Positions 1-19,756 of a DNA stretch of 26,322 nt are shown here, piece by piece. The position numbers were made by a program, and so were the translations under genes. Each line of letters opens with the position of its first letter. Positions within the stretch are counted from its first letter, which is position 1. The notes beneath the pieces are model-generated. The model was not told the DNA's origin. It saw only the letters and a program-made list of their open reading frames with translations, and did no database searches. Where the stretch lies: positions 1-26,322 of the IMG/VR virus record IMGVR_UViG_3300045988_013119. The stretch is one strand, 5' to 3'. Origin of the DNA: a virus. Taxonomy: Duplodnaviria > Heunggongvirae > Uroviricota > Caudoviricetes.

Positions 1-41
1 ACTGCATATCGTCGGCAGCGTCAGATGTGTATAAGAGACAG
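1..41. other. Synthetic Illumina Nextera adapter: 8-nt i5 index ACTGCATA followed by read-1 adapter and Tn5 mosaic end
   Basis: Positions 9-41 read TCGTCGGCAGCGTCAGATGTGTATAAGAGACAG, which I recognise as the Nextera read-1 adapter ending in the 19-bp Tn5 mosaic end. The 8 nt before it match the index I recall as N506/S506. Confidence 0.95.
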
Positions 42-73
42 TATTTATACAGTTATTGCATGGAGAAGATAAG

Positions 74-331
74 ATGCAGCAGTATCACTATCCACTGGAA
101 GACGGATTTACCGAAAGGATTCACACGCCGGGAGGCGTCAGGTCACTGGTGGAGGGATCGCACTTGATGAAATTACTCCGGGATCTCGATAAGGATGGAT
201 TTAATGTCGATGGCCCACTTGCCGAACTGACTGCACTGATTAACTACGTCACCAGCTCACAGATGTCTATGCAGGATCTGCAAACACATCTCGACTATTG
301 TGCCGAACAATTACGAAAACAAACCCGGTAA
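74..331 (+). CDS. Antirepressor C-terminal-domain-like protein, possibly 5-prime truncated by the contig edge
   Basis: ATG at 74 is preceded by GGAG at 62-65. The ORF track begins at a TTG at 56 and the frame stays open back into the adapter. The protein (IHTPGGVRSLVEGSHLMKLLRDL...LQTHLDY) is clearly paralogous to the C-terminus of the 1477-2163 protein (IHSPSGVLGLTENSLLMNLLNQL...IQTHAEY). Confidence 0.55.
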   Translation: MQQYHYPLEDGFTERIHTPGGVRSLVEGSHLMKLLRDLDKDGFNVDGPLAELTALINYVTSSQMSMQDLQTHLDYCAEQLRKQTR

Positions 332-337
332 ATTTAA

Positions 338-355
338 AGGCCGCAAGAGCGGCCT
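338..355. terminator. Hairpin AGGCCGC-AAGA-GCGGCCT between convergent ORFs, candidate bidirectional terminator
   Basis: A 7-bp GC-rich stem with a 4-nt loop sits between the stop of 74-331 (+) and the stop of 354-1082 (-). T/A-rich tracts flank it on both sides. Confidence 0.45.
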
Positions 356-1082
356 ATCGTTTCGCTTTGTGCTCATCCCAGCACGTTTTGCACCATGCCA
401 TTAAGCCGTCCGCATTTTGATTATTAGGGTAAAAGCTGGTTCGTTTTCTGCGGACATTACAAATTGGGCACCACTTCATATGGCGTGTATTCTTTGGGCC
501 ATCGAGACACCTTGCACACCACTTAGTCAATCCATCTGGATTTTTTGACGATTTCCTGAATTTTTCATATGGAAGGTTTATTCTGCATCGCAAGCACTGC
601 TTGCTACCACTTGAAACTCTGTTAGCTGATTCTTCTTTTGGCGGCGATGCAGAAGGTATTCTTGCTGGCTCTGATACTGCCTGAGGTGCTTTTTTAGATG
701 ACTGAGACGATATGTCATCACCAGGGAATCTTCCATGATATGCCGGACGCGTTGACACTCCAGGTGGAAGCTCAGCTGTAAACGGCTTTGGCTGAATCAG
801 TTGCCTCTCTTTTGCTAACTCCTGCTGTTTATAATATGTCTGGATTACCGCACTATCATAAGCAGGAGGTGCGGAAATATTAGGCGCATTACCTCCAGTT
901 TTTTGAAACTGAGTAGAGGTGTGTTCTATCACCTGTGTACGATTAATCGTTATCTCCCCATCTTCGGTCTTTATCGTTTTGTTATGATTAACGACCGTAC
1001 GATCAGAGATCTTAGTCTTGTTCTGGTTGATAACGTAAATAATCACCGCAACCACACCAACAACTATCCAGAAAACTTCCAT
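354..1082 (-). CDS. Membrane-anchored protein with a C-terminal tandem Cys-rich (zinc-ribbon-like) domain; function unknown
   Basis: 242-aa ORF with GAGG 7 nt upstream of the ATG. Residues 4-18 (FWIVVGVVAVIIYVI) form a hydrophobic helix followed by K/R residues, then a Ser/Pro/Gln-rich linker. The C-terminus carries repeated CxxC ... DGL..WCxxC units (CLRC...PDGLTKWCARC; WCPIC...ADGLMAWCKTC). Confidence 0.8.
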   Translation of the reverse strand: MEVFWIVVGVVAVIIYVINQNKTKISDRTVVNHNKTIKTEDGEITINRTQVIEHTSTQFQKTGGNAPNISAPPAYDSAVIQTYYKQQELAKERQLIQPKPFTAELPPGVSTRPAYHGRFPGDDISSQSSKKAPQAVSEPARIPSASPPKEESANRVSSGSKQCLRCRINLPYEKFRKSSKNPDGLTKWCARCLDGPKNTRHMKWCPICNVRRKRTSFYPNNQNADGLMAWCKTCWDEHKAKR

Positions 1083-1101: not shown

Positions 1102-1118
1102 ATTACCTTAAAGGTAAT
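1102..1118. promoter_or_regulatory. Operator-like palindrome ATTACCTTAAAGGTAAT (copy A of ATTACCTT-N3-GGTAA)
   Basis: Perfect 17-bp palindrome 20 bp upstream of the start codon of the 354-1082 gene, in a divergent intergenic region. The same half-sites recur at 1195-1211 and 19342-19358. Confidence 0.45.
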
Positions 1119-1194
1119 ATCTTGCTTTCAGGTGATCAAGCGTTAAACGCAATCAACCAAATACGGTTGATTTTAATATTTCTTCGCGTTTATC

Positions 1195-1211: not shown

Positions 1212-1476
1212 TTTACATCGCACTCCTCTTGTGCCATAGTAATCGGGCACTGGATTTTGCCAGTGCCGGGATTGGCGTCCCGGGTTACTACAGAGGCACA
1301 TATGCCGCATAAGCGGTTTTTTTATGTGTAAAGCGCACCTATTCTATGGTGGGCTGTGTGGGGGCACCGAAAGGTGCGCCGGGTCCTTTGTAGCCGGTTA
1401 CGCCAACCCTGCACAGTTCACCACCAACCGATTGGCGTCGGTAGTGGTGATTAACCTAACTACAAAGGTGATCACT

Positions 1477-2163
1477 ATGACTGCTAACGTAACCCCATCT
1501 GTTTTTCATTTTGAATCAGAGGCAACCATTCGAGCCATTGTTATTGATGGAAATCCTTGGTTTGTTGCCAAAGACGTTATTAAAGCTCTTCAACTGACAA
1601 ACCCCACTATGTCAATAAAATCTCTTGATGATGATGAAAGGGCTAAATTTAACTTAGGCCGTCAAGGCGAAACCAATATTATCAACGAGTCAGGCCTCTA
1701 CACACTGATCCTCCGCTGCCGCGATGCGGTGACACCAGGCACTATCCCCTACCGCTTTCGTAAATGGGTTACAGGTGAGGTTCTTCCTCAGATCCGCCGC
1801 ACCGGAAGTTACATTAAAAACTCGCTCCCGCAGGAAGAACGCATAAAGATGGTTGCCGACCAGGTAGCCAACGCCACGGCGTCAGCAGTAATGCAGGCGA
1901 TGAAGATAGAGAACAAAACCTACAGTGCCCCGCTGAAGCCCGGCTACCGCAGCCTGATTCACTCGCCGTCTGGTGTTCTCGGCCTGACGGAGAACTCACT
2001 GCTGATGAATCTGCTGAACCAGTTACAGGAAGACGGGCACGACGTATCGGGCGCGGCGGCAGAGCTGACCACCATGTTCTGCTACATCGTCGGTGTGAGC
2101 AAATGCCTGCGTGATATCCAGACGCACGCGGAGTACATCAACGACAAAGCAGGATTCTTCTGA
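1477..2163 (+). CDS. Phage antirepressor with Bro-N/KilA-N-like N-terminal domain
   Basis: ATG at 1477 with AAAGGTG 7 nt upstream; the ORF track's longer start at 1324 lacks an RBS and runs through structured leader. The N-terminal region (FHFESEATIRAIVIDGNPWFVAKDVIKALQL...) is typical of the Bro-N antirepressor family as I recall it. Confidence 0.8.
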   Translation: MTANVTPSVFHFESEATIRAIVIDGNPWFVAKDVIKALQLTNPTMSIKSLDDDERAKFNLGRQGETNIINESGLYTLILRCRDAVTPGTIPYRFRKWVTGEVLPQIRRTGSYIKNSLPQEERIKMVADQVANATASAVMQAMKIENKTYSAPLKPGYRSLIHSPSGVLGLTENSLLMNLLNQLQEDGHDVSGAAAELTTMFCYIVGVSKCLRDIQTHAEYINDKAGFF

Positions 2164-2311: not shown

Positions 2312-2485
2312 ATGCGAAACGAAAAATTGCAGATGCGTAGAGCGCAAGCTGCCGCAAGACGTTCTTTCAATGGAAGCGTAGAGTGCGTAAAAGTTACTAT
2401 GACAAAAGATCACGCAAGTCGCGTATCCCGCGCTTTCTTTGATTCTCGTAACAATAAGGAAAATTATGAGTTCGTCTGCGTCGCA
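2312..2485 (+). CDS. Small basic ORF (57 aa) overlapping the start of the YafO-like gene; candidate partner/antitoxin, unverified
   Basis: ATG at 2312 with GAGG at 2301-2304 (7-nt spacing). The ORF ends 20 nt inside the downstream gene, the usual toxin-antitoxin overlap geometry. It is below the size cutoff of the supplied ORF track. I recognise no homology. Confidence 0.3.
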
Positions 2486-3011
2486 GAATGATAAAAATCA
2501 AATTGTCAGATATAAGGGTCGAGTATTGCATACGCAAAATTTCTCGGCCCTTTGTGCATCTGATCTTGAGCTGAAGAAAGTATCTGATGCCTTTACCCAG
2601 TATTGGAAAACGGGATACCATCCATCTCTTGGTAAAGATGCTGCATTTGCTCGTCCGACAGAAATGCTTAAACTAAATGTCAGGCATACTCATGTCGATA
2701 ACCAAGACTATATTCCAGAAGATAGTGATAAAAAACACACTGGTAAAAAATCATCTTGGGATGCATGGAAAAATATAGCGTCTGTGCAAGTAAAATGCAT
2801 ACCAACAAGTGATTGCTTTTTAGTTTATTCGGTAAATCACAATCGTGATGCGCTGGTTATGTTTTTTGTTGACGCAGATGCCCACAACATAACTGAGCAA
2901 GAAGAGTTTAAAGAGGCAGCAATCACTATCAGTTATCAATTCTTTGAGAAAACAAAAACAGAACCAATGCCTTTAGAAGAAGATCTTTTTTCTGATAAAT
3001 GGAAGGAATAA
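2466..3011 (+). CDS. YafO-toxin-like domain protein (181 aa) encoded on a moron-like cargo locus
   Basis: ATG at 2466 with AAGGA upstream; the track's 2439 start lacks an RBS. Motifs GKDAAF...VRHTHVD...FLVYSVNHNRDALVMFFV...ADAH parallel the E. coli YafO motifs as I recall them (GRDALY...VAHIHL...HLVYCQG...). The gene looks AT-rich by eye, has its own terminator and is transcribed opposite to the tail genes. Confidence 0.7.
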   Translation: MSSSASQNDKNQIVRYKGRVLHTQNFSALCASDLELKKVSDAFTQYWKTGYHPSLGKDAAFARPTEMLKLNVRHTHVDNQDYIPEDSDKKHTGKKSSWDAWKNIASVQVKCIPTSDCFLVYSVNHNRDALVMFFVDADAHNITEQEEFKEAAITISYQFFEKTKTEPMPLEEDLFSDKWKE

Positions 3012-3266: not shown

Positions 3267-5741
3267 TTATTGCGGAGTGACATCCTGTGGTCGCCACCAG
3301 TATGTCTGGTTAAACTCTTTCTTCGAACGTTGCTCCATTTTACGCAAATAGCCTGGTGAAAAATACTCCTGCATCTGGTTAAAGATCATGTGATCGAGAG
3401 CCGCCTTTAAGTACCAGAGATTCGCACCTGGCATCAAACCTTTCCCCAGCTTCACCAGATCACCACCAGTCTGCTCACTCTTCCCTTCCACAGCATTTAA
3501 CGGTATGCCCTGAGCAATCTTCACTACGTCATCAACCAGACCAGCTACCGGGCCAAGCATCGACGCCAGCGCGCCGCTTCCGTACCTAGTGTGATCTGAC
3601 AATAAAAAGTCACCGTAAAGGCCAAGACCACCACCTTTCAGTAGAGCACCAAGCCAAAATTTAGCAGCATCTTCTCCTGTCATCTCGCGAGGATTACGAC
3701 CAGACGCAAGGTCGTTAAGTTGCTGCGACAAAGCGCCAAGAATGGTCGTACTGGCAATAAACGTCGCAATATATGCCGCACGCCCACCAGCAGACGGCAT
3801 ACCCATAGCGCGTGACCAGTGACGCATAACTACCGAGATAGGGAACGATTTAAACAGGAAAACACTTCTCGTTAATTCACCTTTCCATGTTCCACGCTGA
3901 ATACCAGAACCGGTTATCAGTTGCTCACGTGCTCCCGGTGTAATAACAGCCATATCAACTTCTTCAGTTACGGCACCGAGAAGTTTACGCATTGCCTCAA
4001 ATTTCACGCGTTCAGGCTCACCAAGATGTTTAACTGCTGAATCAGGGATACGCATAATGCTTTCCGGTGTCAGCATCGTATTATTGCCGTTCCCCCAGTC
4101 CTCCTGTTGCGCCAGCTTCCATACGCTCCAGTCTGTTTCAGTAATCCCTTTGCTTTTCAGGATACGAAAATCAGAGTCATCGAGGCTACGAAGGTCTGGT
4201 GTCCGTGACACTACCTCTCCCAGGCTTCCCATCATTGTTACGCCATAGGCGCGCTTGTGCGCATCTGACCATGCTGTAAGCCCACTGGCACGCATTACCG
4301 CCGTTGCCGCCCAACGAGACACAGACGGCCCCATATTATCCATTGCCCAGCGGTTAACACTGCCAAGTAGAGATTCCATCGCCAGACCAGCGCGGCGCGC
4401 CCGCGCAAGCTCAGTACGGTTCGTTGGGTCCATAGCTTCAAGCTGGTTGCGGAATAACTGGTTCATTGGAAGGTTGGTCACCTTCGCAGACAGATACATG
4501 GTTCCAAGATCAGAGAACGATGACAGCAACGCGGATCCTAGTCGGCTGGCAACCAGCCAGTTGCGGATATTGTCAGACCAGCGCGCGATGTGCGGATTCG
4601 CTACAGGCTGTGTCTTTCCGGAAATAAAGTTGTACAGATTCTCTGTGTTGTTCGCCAGCCGCTCGACTTTACCGGTTTTACTCGGGTTAGCTGTTGCCGT
4701 TTCTGCCTTCACCTGATCAAGAAGAGAGCGGAAAACATGATCGGGGTTTGGGCCATATGTTTCCACCAGTGCAATATCTTTACTGATACCTTCCAGGTGA
4801 CCGACCATGATTTCCCATAGAGAGCGATCGCCATAAAGTTGCTGATATTGCAGATAGGAATCTGCATCTTTGAAATGTATCTGTCGTGATGCATTACCCC
4901 GGTTAGCACGTGCGCCGGAAATTCGCATTCCGGTATCAGTAAGCTTATTCAGCCCACCAGTAGCGATCGTGTTATAAGCCTCTCCAAGAAATGCAGACAA
5001 CTCGGCATCGTTCATCAGTTGTCCATCGACTCGGGTATAATATTTGCGATCCAGCTTACCTATAACATCGCTAACCCACTTATCCTTTGATACCGCCCCA
5101 ACCTTTTCCATAGAATGATGTTGAGGGATCCCCCAGTTTTCGAGATAGCCAATGTCCCCACCAGCATCATTAAACCGGCGGCGCAGTAGCTCTGTCACTT
5201 CTCTCCACGCCTTAGCACCTTTTCTTGCTTTAGCATTGCCAGTATTTTGCCCTCGCATTTCATATACCAGGTCACGCACGCCAGCTTCATCTTCAAACAG
5301 GCCAAAAAAGCGAGGATCAACTGCTTCAAATGCCTCCTGCAATTGACTCAATGCATAATCACGAGTGGCTTTTGTTCTGGATTCAACAGAGAGGAAATTC
5401 GATTTACCGTCTGCATTAAAAGCAATAGTACGGTTAAGAGCGCCAAGTTTCCCATCAGCCCCTTGATAGCTATTGATAAATTTATCCAATCTCTGACGTG
5501 CGGCTATAGTGAGAGCCACACGACGTTTCTTTAATGCCGCTTCTCGCTGTAATTCTTCAGATGCCAATTGTGCTGCACGATACAACCGTTCTGATTCGGA
5601 AAGTTGTCGCCACGACATCGGATCATCACGAGCAATGGAGCGCATATTTCGATAAATGCGGTCTTCAATGTTCTGTATTTCTCGCGCCGTTAACGTGCGC
5701 TGCGCCGCCTGCTGGACCGCTTGTATACATTCCTGTCTCAT
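3267..5741 (-). CDS. Large internal virion (ejection-type) protein, 824 aa
   Basis: Last large ORF of the structural operon, with GAGG RBS. The C-terminal third contains hydrophobic Gly/Ala-rich segments typical of podovirus ejection proteins. Position matches the T7 gp15/gp16 slot. Confidence 0.8.
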   Translation of the reverse strand: MRQECIQAVQQAAQRTLTAREIQNIEDRIYRNMRSIARDDPMSWRQLSESERLYRAAQLASEELQREAALKKRRVALTIAARQRLDKFINSYQGADGKLGALNRTIAFNADGKSNFLSVESRTKATRDYALSQLQEAFEAVDPRFFGLFEDEAGVRDLVYEMRGQNTGNAKARKGAKAWREVTELLRRRFNDAGGDIGYLENWGIPQHHSMEKVGAVSKDKWVSDVIGKLDRKYYTRVDGQLMNDAELSAFLGEAYNTIATGGLNKLTDTGMRISGARANRGNASRQIHFKDADSYLQYQQLYGDRSLWEIMVGHLEGISKDIALVETYGPNPDHVFRSLLDQVKAETATANPSKTGKVERLANNTENLYNFISGKTQPVANPHIARWSDNIRNWLVASRLGSALLSSFSDLGTMYLSAKVTNLPMNQLFRNQLEAMDPTNRTELARARRAGLAMESLLGSVNRWAMDNMGPSVSRWAATAVMRASGLTAWSDAHKRAYGVTMMGSLGEVVSRTPDLRSLDDSDFRILKSKGITETDWSVWKLAQQEDWGNGNNTMLTPESIMRIPDSAVKHLGEPERVKFEAMRKLLGAVTEEVDMAVITPGAREQLITGSGIQRGTWKGELTRSVFLFKSFPISVVMRHWSRAMGMPSAGGRAAYIATFIASTTILGALSQQLNDLASGRNPREMTGEDAAKFWLGALLKGGGLGLYGDFLLSDHTRYGSGALASMLGPVAGLVDDVVKIAQGIPLNAVEGKSEQTGGDLVKLGKGLMPGANLWYLKAALDHMIFNQMQEYFSPGYLRKMEQRSKKEFNQTYWWRPQDVTPQ

Positions 5742-19341: not shown

Positions 19342-19358
19342 ATTACCTTTCAGGTAAC
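19342..19358. promoter_or_regulatory. Operator-like inverted repeat ATTACCTTTCAGGTAAC (copy C)
   Basis: Shares ATTACCTT-N3-GGTAA with copies A and B. A perfect TTGACA hexamer lies at 19321-19326, and the 10-mer AATTATTACC is also present at 19276-19285. Confidence 0.4.
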
Positions 19359-19679: not shown

Positions 19680-19756
19680 GTGGCATTAGCTCAGTTGGAC
19701 AGAGCAACCGCCTTCTAAGCGGTTGGTCGCAGGTTCGAATCCTGCATGCCACGCCA
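19680..19756 (+). tRNA. tRNA-Arg (anticodon UCU), phage-encoded, argU-like core with a divergent acceptor stem
   Basis: Cloverleaf read by hand: acceptor GTGGCAT/ATGCCAC, D-arm GCTC-AGTTGGACA-GAGC, anticodon arm ACCGC-CTTCTAA-GCGGT (anticodon TCT), variable TGGTC, T-arm GCAGG-TTCGAAT-CCTGC, discriminator G, encoded CCA. Confidence 0.85.

Follow-up and report, generated by a model that had tools for sequence, protein, structure and literature searches.

We analyzed a stretch of 26,322 nucleotides (hereafter the window), positions 1 to 26,322 of the IMG/VR tailed-phage record IMGVR_UViG_3300045988_013119, with a focus on one gene close to its 5′ end that encodes a 242-residue protein with a single predicted transmembrane (TM) helix, a long linker, and two tandem zinc ribbons. 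From base 42 on, the window is similar to temperate podoviruses of the epsilon15/phiV10 type, with 97% identity to TL-2011b and patchy matches to phiV10. In E. coli 85.0412, a prophage integrated at the guaA 3′ end is 100% identical over the region, and the window represents an epsilon15/phiV10-like prophage at guaA. The gene occupies a variable accessory region, with the tailspike/p19-like gene on one side and ejection-protein genes, including those of an 824-amino-acid protein and a T7 gp14-like core protein, on the other. Its guanine-plus-cytosine (GC) content is 0.438, compared to 0.497 for the window. An initial annotation, made from the sequence alone, had described the gene as divergent from an antirepressor, and this neighbor is indeed a Bro-N antirepressor gene (window 1324–2163, plus strand).

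Protein architecture, homologs, and the zinc module

We regard the open reading frame (ORF) as a real gene because of its homolog clusters, its match to a phage protein family, and its recurrence in E. coli genomes. Full-length homologs form 33 clusters in the Enterobacterales, with 38–96% identity, from Escherichia, Superficieibacter, Enterobacter, Citrobacter, Salmonella, Serratia, Providencia, Pectobacterium, and Buttiauxella. The profile of phrog_6762, a PHROG family without known function, aligns from end to end (residues 1–242 on profile positions 1–242, E = 2.2e-150), and 129 of 5426 complete E. coli genomes carry the gene, always on the chromosome and always annotated ‘hypothetical protein’. 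The product, which starts at an ATG codon, is 100% identical to the PGAP coding sequence WP_021529108.1, labeled in the same way, and a literature search with the accession WP_021529108 found nothing. Six of 50,697 phage records contain the gene (TL-2011b twice, YeP4, YeP5, YeP6, and phiARM81mr), all of them temperate, and it is missing from phiV10 and other close relatives, which agrees with the earlier description of an accessory gene outside the structural operon. In TL-2011b (4312–5040), an intact 242-codon ORF appears in the GenBank and RefSeq records only as a misc_feature ‘similar to hypothetical protein’, never as a coding sequence; a disrupted copy was considered there and rejected, given that the ORF is intact and that the N-terminal truncation in tblastn is an effect of low-complexity filtering. 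In the Yersinia phage YeP5, AAAACT hexanucleotide repeats at 1988–2100 encode a (K-T)n run right after the TM helix; the true start is probably ~29 codons downstream of the annotated one (1900), and the conserved M-E-I-F-W start is at 1987.

The TM helix is followed by a juxtamembrane segment, the linker, and a C-terminal zinc domain (Table 1). In an AlphaFold model built with a 28-sequence alignment, the C-terminal domain (residues 160–242) is confident, with a predicted local distance difference test (pLDDT) score >90, and consists of two β-β-(β)-α units. The two repeats are 35% identical over 40 residues (E = 1e-7) and read C163xxC166...N-P-DGL-TK-WC189xxC192 and C205xxC208...N-A-DGL-MA-WC231xxC234; all eight cysteines, together with W188, W230, and G184, are invariant across 26 diverse family members. 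In the family alignments, the TM helix and juxtamembrane segment are conserved to the same degree as the zinc domain. The juxtamembrane motif is NQNKTK.SDRTVV...TIKTEDGEITINRTQV, with N21 and G42 nearly invariant (alignments A1 and A3), and the possible hairpin (residues 26–55) is modeled with low confidence (pLDDT 44–53). Of the 99 linker residues, 14 are Pro, 12 Ser, and 8 Gln, and the linker varies in length and sequence among homologs. The ORF, the model, and the alignments together confirm the overall plan first read from the sequence, namely a 242-residue protein with a single N-terminal TM helix, a Ser/Pro/Gln linker, and two Cys repeats.

The charge distribution around the helix gives the topology. 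The protein begins with M-E and the helix follows directly, leaving two residues before it, and in 58 members of the same architecture Lys and Arg residues average 0.07 ahead of the helix, compared to 3.5 within the 15 residues that follow it. The positive-inside rule is established, and this bias places the N-terminus outside and the rest of the protein in the cytoplasm, a compartment where Cys4-Zn sites are stable. The protein is thus predicted to be a bitopic inner-membrane protein with a cytoplasmic zinc domain, which is basic (20 Lys/Arg in 85 residues, pI 9.9). The initial annotation had named topology prediction and searches with hidden Markov models and structures as checks; the former gave one TM helix and a predicted cytoplasmic C-terminus, while the latter named no function (phrog_6762 has none, and PADLOC and NCBIfam gave nothing).

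The zinc module itself is known but poorly characterized. In a Pfam scan at E-values up to 1, Stc1 (PF12898) was the sole match (21.2 bits, E = 4.4e-4), below the family cut-off of 24.8 bits; the protein is not a member of a curated family, in line with the earlier remark that the module could not be placed in one. Nonetheless, the eight cysteines that Stc1 requires as two Cys4 sites are present in this protein and in the 26 diverse members, and multi-repeat relatives of the module exceed the Stc1 threshold, with 33.9, 39.2, and 56.2 bits. A domain profile search at E-values up to 1e-3 gave 3204 representative clusters, many of which are arrays of 4–10 repeats and some 40–60 of which bear a TM helix. 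The PHROG profiles for endonuclease VII, HNH endonuclease, primase, and Lar-like proteins match the ribbons and no other part of the protein; that of phrog_5558, ‘Lar-like restriction alleviation protein’, covers ribbon 2 only (residues 201–241, E = 3e-9), and the Pfam scan returned no Lar family. Ribbon 1 has a borderline profile match to the N-terminal zinc ribbon of PacI (E = 0.074), and at the sequence level, matches to the zinc domain in the Protein Data Bank (PDB) were borderline only. With Foldseek, the full-length model matched nothing significantly in the PDB (best E = 1.2). A Foldseek search of viral models (BFVD) gave 40 matches at E < 1e-3, and those with names are mostly phage and giant-virus proteins of the HNH, β-β-α-Me, EndoVII, and ‘Stc1 domain’ kinds; structural matches include Hpy99I, PacI, and viral HNH proteins.

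A nuclease identity was considered and rejected because the catalytic His and the metal-ligand Asn/His are not conserved. Inside the ribbons, alignment A3 of the diverse members shows no invariant or nearly invariant His or Asn, and the protein has D-G where HNH nucleases read D-H, leaving the Cys4 scaffold alone in common. The likeness to Stc1 and to the accessory ribbons of HNH, EndoVII, and PacI proteins resides in two CxxC-x(~22)-CxxC units with F...DG...WC, whereas the subthreshold Pfam score, the lack of a catalytic His/Asn, and the fusion to a TM anchor, which is not a described architecture, set the protein apart. The double zinc-ribbon module is also found at the C-terminus of an MkoC-like (Mokosh) SF1 helicase and is repeated inside a PbeA-like helicase with HEAT repeats (P0105 and P0035), which suggests that it is reused as a nucleic-acid-binding or sensing unit of defense proteins. 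The ribbon is widespread, Stc1-like, and HNH-associated, lacks catalytic residues, and, as we infer from these domain associations, is probably a nucleic-acid-binding unit. We found no description of the TM–leash–tandem-ribbon architecture or of its association with immunity regions, and a 2024 review of superinfection exclusion makes no mention of zinc. The precomputed Pfam accession PF27269.1, attached to three distant members (P0098, P0182, and P0184), may represent a recently built family that covers this architecture.

Genomic context and predicted regulation

In epsilon15-like phages, the gene sits between the ejection-protein genes and the immI/tailspike region, a slot kept in prophages of Serratia, Providencia, Yersinia, and Pectobacterium and in many IMG/VR contigs. 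There the genes are arranged as tailspike / p19-like → (antirepressor) → gene → / ← ejection protein, with the cassette inverted in E. coli, and the neighbors are variable (Bro-N, KilA-N/ANT, Rha, and the toxin–antitoxin genes HicAB and YafO). Among the distant TM-bearing loci that we read, from non-enterobacterial hosts and Edwardsiella (L004, L092, L097–L101, and L103), all eight lie in lysogeny-control modules. In four phages, the gene is on the same strand as a cI-type repressor gene and downstream of it: directly so in Aeromonas phiARM81mr (19-bp gap), prophage L092 (15-bp gap), and Acinetobacter L098, and with one small membrane ORF between in Acinetobacter L100. The relatives directly downstream of cI are probably co-transcribed with it. 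This is also the location of rexAB in lambda, nun in HK022, and stk in 933W, with which there is no homology; unlike these, the gene of the window phage is found in the antirepressor region under an operator, away from the repressor gene. In Acinetobacter L097, the gene comes right after an Arc-like repressor, itself divergent from a KilA-N antirepressor, and faces an 856-amino-acid ejection-protein homolog. A convergent cI directly adjoins it in Oceanobacter L101 and Pseudoalteromonas L103, and in Edwardsiella it follows a Rha gene beside the integrase. One member occupies a myovirus tail-fiber accessory slot and another a small element that is resolvase-flanked and contains a cI-like gene. 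As a mobile accessory cassette of temperate phages, the gene has its own predicted promoter, operator, and terminator; the last of these is likely the hairpin that follows the stop codon and is shared with the convergent p19-like gene.

The control region contains two copies of a palindrome. The proximal copy, ATTACCTT-A-AAGGTAAT (8 + 1 + 8), begins 20 bp upstream of the start codon, where the initial annotation had reported a perfect palindrome; the second copy, which it had put about 115 bp upstream, is present at 113 bp and retains the core TTACC-N5-GGTAA, but it is imperfect, with three mismatches to the 17-mer. This core occurs five times in the window (1102, 1195, 2236, 19342, and 22554) vs. 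0 expected, and the complete prophage (L006) has 11 perfect and six one-mismatch sites vs. 0.8 expected. Two sites lie on each side of the gene for a helix-turn-helix (HTH) repressor (WP_000836290.1; 12430–13014 in L006), and others are found at the terminase small subunit gene and upstream of the integrase, the portal operon, the tail fiber, the YafO-like gene, the antirepressor operon, and the gene just downstream of the replication-protein P gene. Because the sites map over the prophage and to both sides of the HTH repressor gene, we predict that TTACC-N5-GGTAA is the operator bound by the main prophage repressor, in which an HTH_3 domain is present and an S24 domain was not found. For epsilon15, an operator consensus resembling ATTACC...GGTAAT is reported to be bound by gp38. 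The dispersed sites make up a predicted regulon under a direct global repression scheme like that of P1 C1.

The only plausible promoter of the gene has its −10 hexamer, TACCTT, inside the proximal operator. The same layout, with one operator over the −10/start and a second 62 bp upstream, is seen at the PL-like promoter and at a promoter at 15.4 kb. Upstream of homologs, the promoter–operator overlap recurs in six sequence groups (E. coli; the L073 group; Enterobacter/Citrobacter/Salmonella; Serratia; Pectobacterium; and Providencia), with TTGAnn-17-TA(C/A)C(T/C)T in five and TTGACA-16-TACCTT in Pectobacterium. The equivalent operator lies 32–45 nt upstream of the ATG in phage homologs from Enterobacter, Citrobacter, Salmonella, Serratia, Pectobacterium, and Providencia, although its sequence differs in Providencia (TTAACC-N5-GGTTAA), and the promoter–operator comes directly after a terminator in the Enterobacter/Citrobacter/Salmonella and Providencia groups. 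In one other homolog clade, no palindrome was found upstream. Since the main repressor operator overlaps the −10 and the predicted start, the gene is predicted to be repressed in a stable lysogen and expressed early or upon induction, when the repressor is absent or inactivated. The tight regulation proposed earlier is supported by the predicted operator over the −10, and lysogenic expression is plausible only for the relatives directly downstream of cI.

A second palindrome, TGTGACATGTCACA, is located ~−74 from the homolog ATG in L066, L070, and L071 (Enterobacter, Citrobacter, and Salmonella), 2 bp upstream of the −35, with imperfect variants in L065 and L067–L069; it was not called as a CRP site, given its spacer of 4 bp compared to 6 bp in a CRP site. 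No LexA box was found in the control region (1083–1486), and the only two matches in the window lie elsewhere, at chance level.

Table 1. Coordinates (window positions) of the gene, its protein regions, and the predicted control elements and RNAs around it.
Feature	Position	Strand	Basis and remarks
Coding sequence, 242-aa membrane-tethered tandem zinc-ribbon protein	354..1082	-	ORF list; phrog_6762 match; homolog clusters
Shine-Dalgarno GAGGAA	1088..1093	-	5 nt before ATG; read from sequence
TM helix, residues 3-20, predicted N-out/C-in	1023..1076	-	AlphaFold pLDDT ~90; charge bias
Juxtamembrane segment, residues 21-58, conserved, possibly β-hairpin	909..1022	-	Alignments A1, A3
Pro/Ser/Gln-rich linker, residues 59-157, predicted disordered	612..908	-	pLDDT <50; varies between homologs
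Zinc ribbon 1, residues 161-194, CxxC-x22-CxxC	501..602	-	Invariant C163, C166, C189, C192; pLDDT >90
Zinc ribbon 2, residues 203-236, CxxC-x22-CxxC	375..476	-	Invariant C205, C208, C231, C234
GC-rich hairpin directly after stop codon, AGGCCGCTCTTGCGGCCT	338..355	.	Terminator-like site
Proximal operator (predicted), ATTACCTTAAAGGTAAT, perfect palindrome	1102..1118	.	Overlaps -10 and predicted start of gene promoter
Distal operator (predicted), core TTACCTTTGCGGTAA	1195..1211	.	93 bp from proximal; abuts -35 of divergent isrK/C4/antirepressor promoter
Candidate sigma-70 promoter, TTGATC(1139-1134)-17-TACCTT(1116-1111), predicted start near 1104	1111..1139	-	Read from sequence
Divergent promoter (predicted), TTTACA(1212)-17-CATAGT(1240)			Promoter scan
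isrK-like small RNA	1247-1323	+	56.7 bits, over Rfam gathering threshold
C4 antisense RNA	1342-1428	+	79.5 bits, over Rfam gathering threshold

Proposed function and its alternatives

We tentatively propose that the protein is a membrane-tethered DNA-binding factor for superinfection exclusion or defense. The exclusion or defense role is suggested by the restriction of the gene to temperate phages, the mobility of the cassette and its variable neighbors, the low GC content, the dispensability of the gene, and its recurrence in the sieA and cI-downstream slots, while the interception of DNA is suggested by a basic domain that a ~100-residue leash tethers to the cytoplasmic membrane face. In this mechanism, the zinc ribbons would act as nucleic-acid-binding units on the cytoplasmic side of the inner membrane, and the protein would capture or block DNA leaving the ejection conduit of an incoming phage, with no partner protein required. 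In the window phage, it would be silent in the stable lysogen and made right after infection or upon antirepressor-driven induction, so that the cell would be protected during establishment and lytic growth; in lambdoid relatives, the protein, probably co-transcribed with cI, would act in the lysogen. The initial annotation had suggested a lysogeny-expressed accessory gene, such as one for superinfection exclusion, signaling, or anti-defense. An exclusion or defense role is the best-supported guess from comparative context, but lysogenic expression is not supported, since the sole plausible promoter has the operator over its −10 and predicted start, a layout that predicts the gene to be OFF in a stable lysogen of this phage.

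The proposal has a parallel in SieA of phage P22, a superinfection exclusion protein that keeps P22-like podoviruses from injecting their DNA and is described as the sole studied injection blocker for short-tailed phages (PMC10883804). The two genes are alike in slot and orientation: the P22 order is 20, 16 → / ← sieA ← orf59a ← mnt / arc ant → 9 (tailspike), and the epsilon15-like counterpart is ejection gene → / ← this gene ← antirepressor or Arc-like / tailspike. Each is a single-gene cassette with its own promoter (here predicted) for an inner-membrane protein of a temperate podovirus. However, SieA contains three TM segments but lacks a zinc domain (PMC10883804), compared to one TM helix and predicted cytoplasmic zinc ribbons in this protein, and SieA is expressed in lysogens, whereas the promoter of this gene carries a predicted main repressor operator. 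If the exclusion reading is true, the protein would be a second, mechanistically different answer to the problem that SieA solves, in the same slot of another podovirus lineage and with no shared sequence. It is conceivable, though we consider it doubtful, that the family represents an unrecognized and widespread gammaproteobacterial class of single-polypeptide exclusion or defense proteins, in which leash-tethered tandem zinc ribbons intercept phage DNA by a mechanism distinct from those of SieA, Imm, Sp, and Rex.

Several points weigh against an exclusion or defense role. DNA binding is deduced from domain associations only, and the tandem zinc finger of eukaryotic Stc1 binds protein. Searches of PADLOC-DB 2.0 at E-values up to 0.1 and of NCBIfam each returned 0 families, the database names are all ‘hypothetical protein’, and no experiment was found on any family member. 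There is no sequence similarity to P22 SieA (BLASTP E = 0.23 over 7 residues). The candidate promoter falls under the threshold of a simple promoter scan and was assigned by consensus and conservation only, and its predicted repression would mean that the stable lysogen is not protected, which is atypical of prophage exclusion genes.

A defensive protein might instead act by abortive infection, with the ribbons sensing phage DNA or replication intermediates and their clustering oligomerizing the TM and juxtamembrane segment, which would cause Rex-like membrane damage. The cI-downstream position is the same as that of rexAB, the TM and juxtamembrane segment is conserved like the zinc domain, the module is also carried by defense helicases, and toxin–antitoxin genes lie nearby; on balance we find this unlikely, as one TM helix with two external residues makes a poor pore former, no PADLOC model matches, and there is no evidence of toxicity. 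Alternatively, the protein could modulate the lysis–lysogeny decision by holding the repressor, an antirepressor, or a host factor (e.g., FtsH) at the membrane, or by binding operator DNA. The gene is almost always in immunity modules, whether cI or immI, its control region is common with that of the C4/isrK-regulated antirepressor, and a prophage repressor without an S24 domain implies that induction depends on antirepressors. This modulator role is nonetheless distinctly unlikely, for closely related viable phages with the same repressor and operators, such as phiV10, do without the gene, and the widely differing neighbors are contrary to a specific regulatory partner.

The remaining candidate roles seem weaker. 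The protein p16.7 of the lytic Bacillus phage phi29 is a membrane-anchored DNA-binding protein of genome replication, and a comparable tether could organize the replication or packaging of the phage’s own genome: the topology is the same, with an N-terminal TM anchor and a basic, presumably nucleic-acid-binding domain in the cytoplasm, and the window-phage gene belongs to a predicted repressor-controlled early regulon. Yet the DNA-binding folds are unrelated, the family is found in the immunity regions of temperate phages only, at least four phages have the gene downstream of cI on the same strand, where it is probably co-transcribed, and phiV10 and other close relatives dispense with it, all of which makes a tether improbable. 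We deem an early anti-restriction or anti-defense factor of the Lar/Ral kind quite improbable, despite the phrog_5558 match and the predicted early, repressor-controlled expression; that match covers a generic zinc ribbon only, Stc1 was alone in the Pfam scan, a cI-downstream position is atypical of anti-defense genes, and a basic domain is not a DNA mimic. The N-out anchor, Pro/Gln-rich leash, and C-terminal globular domain also resemble ZipA in design, and the gene adjoins a P1-type c4-antirepressor module, so that one could imagine a host-takeover factor, e.g., a membrane-anchored cell-division inhibitor with a role like that of P1 Icd or lambda Kil. This is very improbable in our view: no known division inhibitor is similar, and co-transcription with cI, which is probable in several phages, would be detrimental to such a function.

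As a single gene of 0.7 kb, the exclusion or defense candidate is easily tested, and if no phenotype emerged, it would be one more conserved hypothetical prophage gene. In addition, the family would illustrate concretely how a dispersed regulon of a P1-like kind places accessory cassettes under direct repressor control in epsilon15/phiV10-like phages.

Neighboring features of the prophage

The isrK-like RNA and the C4 antisense RNA are arranged in tandem upstream of the Bro-N antirepressor, between it and the zinc-ribbon gene, and the three make up a c4-ant immunity module of the P1 type. Within the isrK-like RNA (~1271–1280), and once more just downstream of C4 (~1433–1442), there is a copy of GATTGGCGTC, and it is complementary to GCCAACCC inside C4, an arrangement that looks like paired target sites. 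TL-2011b has the same isrK-like/C4 pair, together with a P22-type sar RNA at a second antirepressor. The p19-like protein (window 56–331, plus strand), an epsilon15 gp19 homolog, shares homology with the Bro-N antirepressor in the C-terminal domain of the latter; both proteins match phrog_450, their tblastn identity is 40–45%, and the p19-like protein may be a free-standing antirepressor C-domain.

Farther along the window, a YafO-family toxin-like gene (2312–3011, plus strand) scores 25.8 bits in Pfam, just over the cut-off, and has a GC content of 0.37. A 59-amino-acid ORF, possibly an antitoxin, overlaps its start side, an operator copy (2236–2252) lies upstream, and in Pectobacterium the equivalent place is occupied by HicAB. 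A tRNA-Arg gene (anticodon TCT; 19680–19756, plus strand) is found between the terminase and portal regions, close to the operator copy at 19342–19358. Lastly, the 33 nt at window positions 9–41 are identical to the Illumina Nextera read-1 adapter, including its Tn5 mosaic end (TCGTCGGCAGCGTCAGATGTGTATAAGAGACAG), and the 5′ end of the contig is a library artifact rather than biology.

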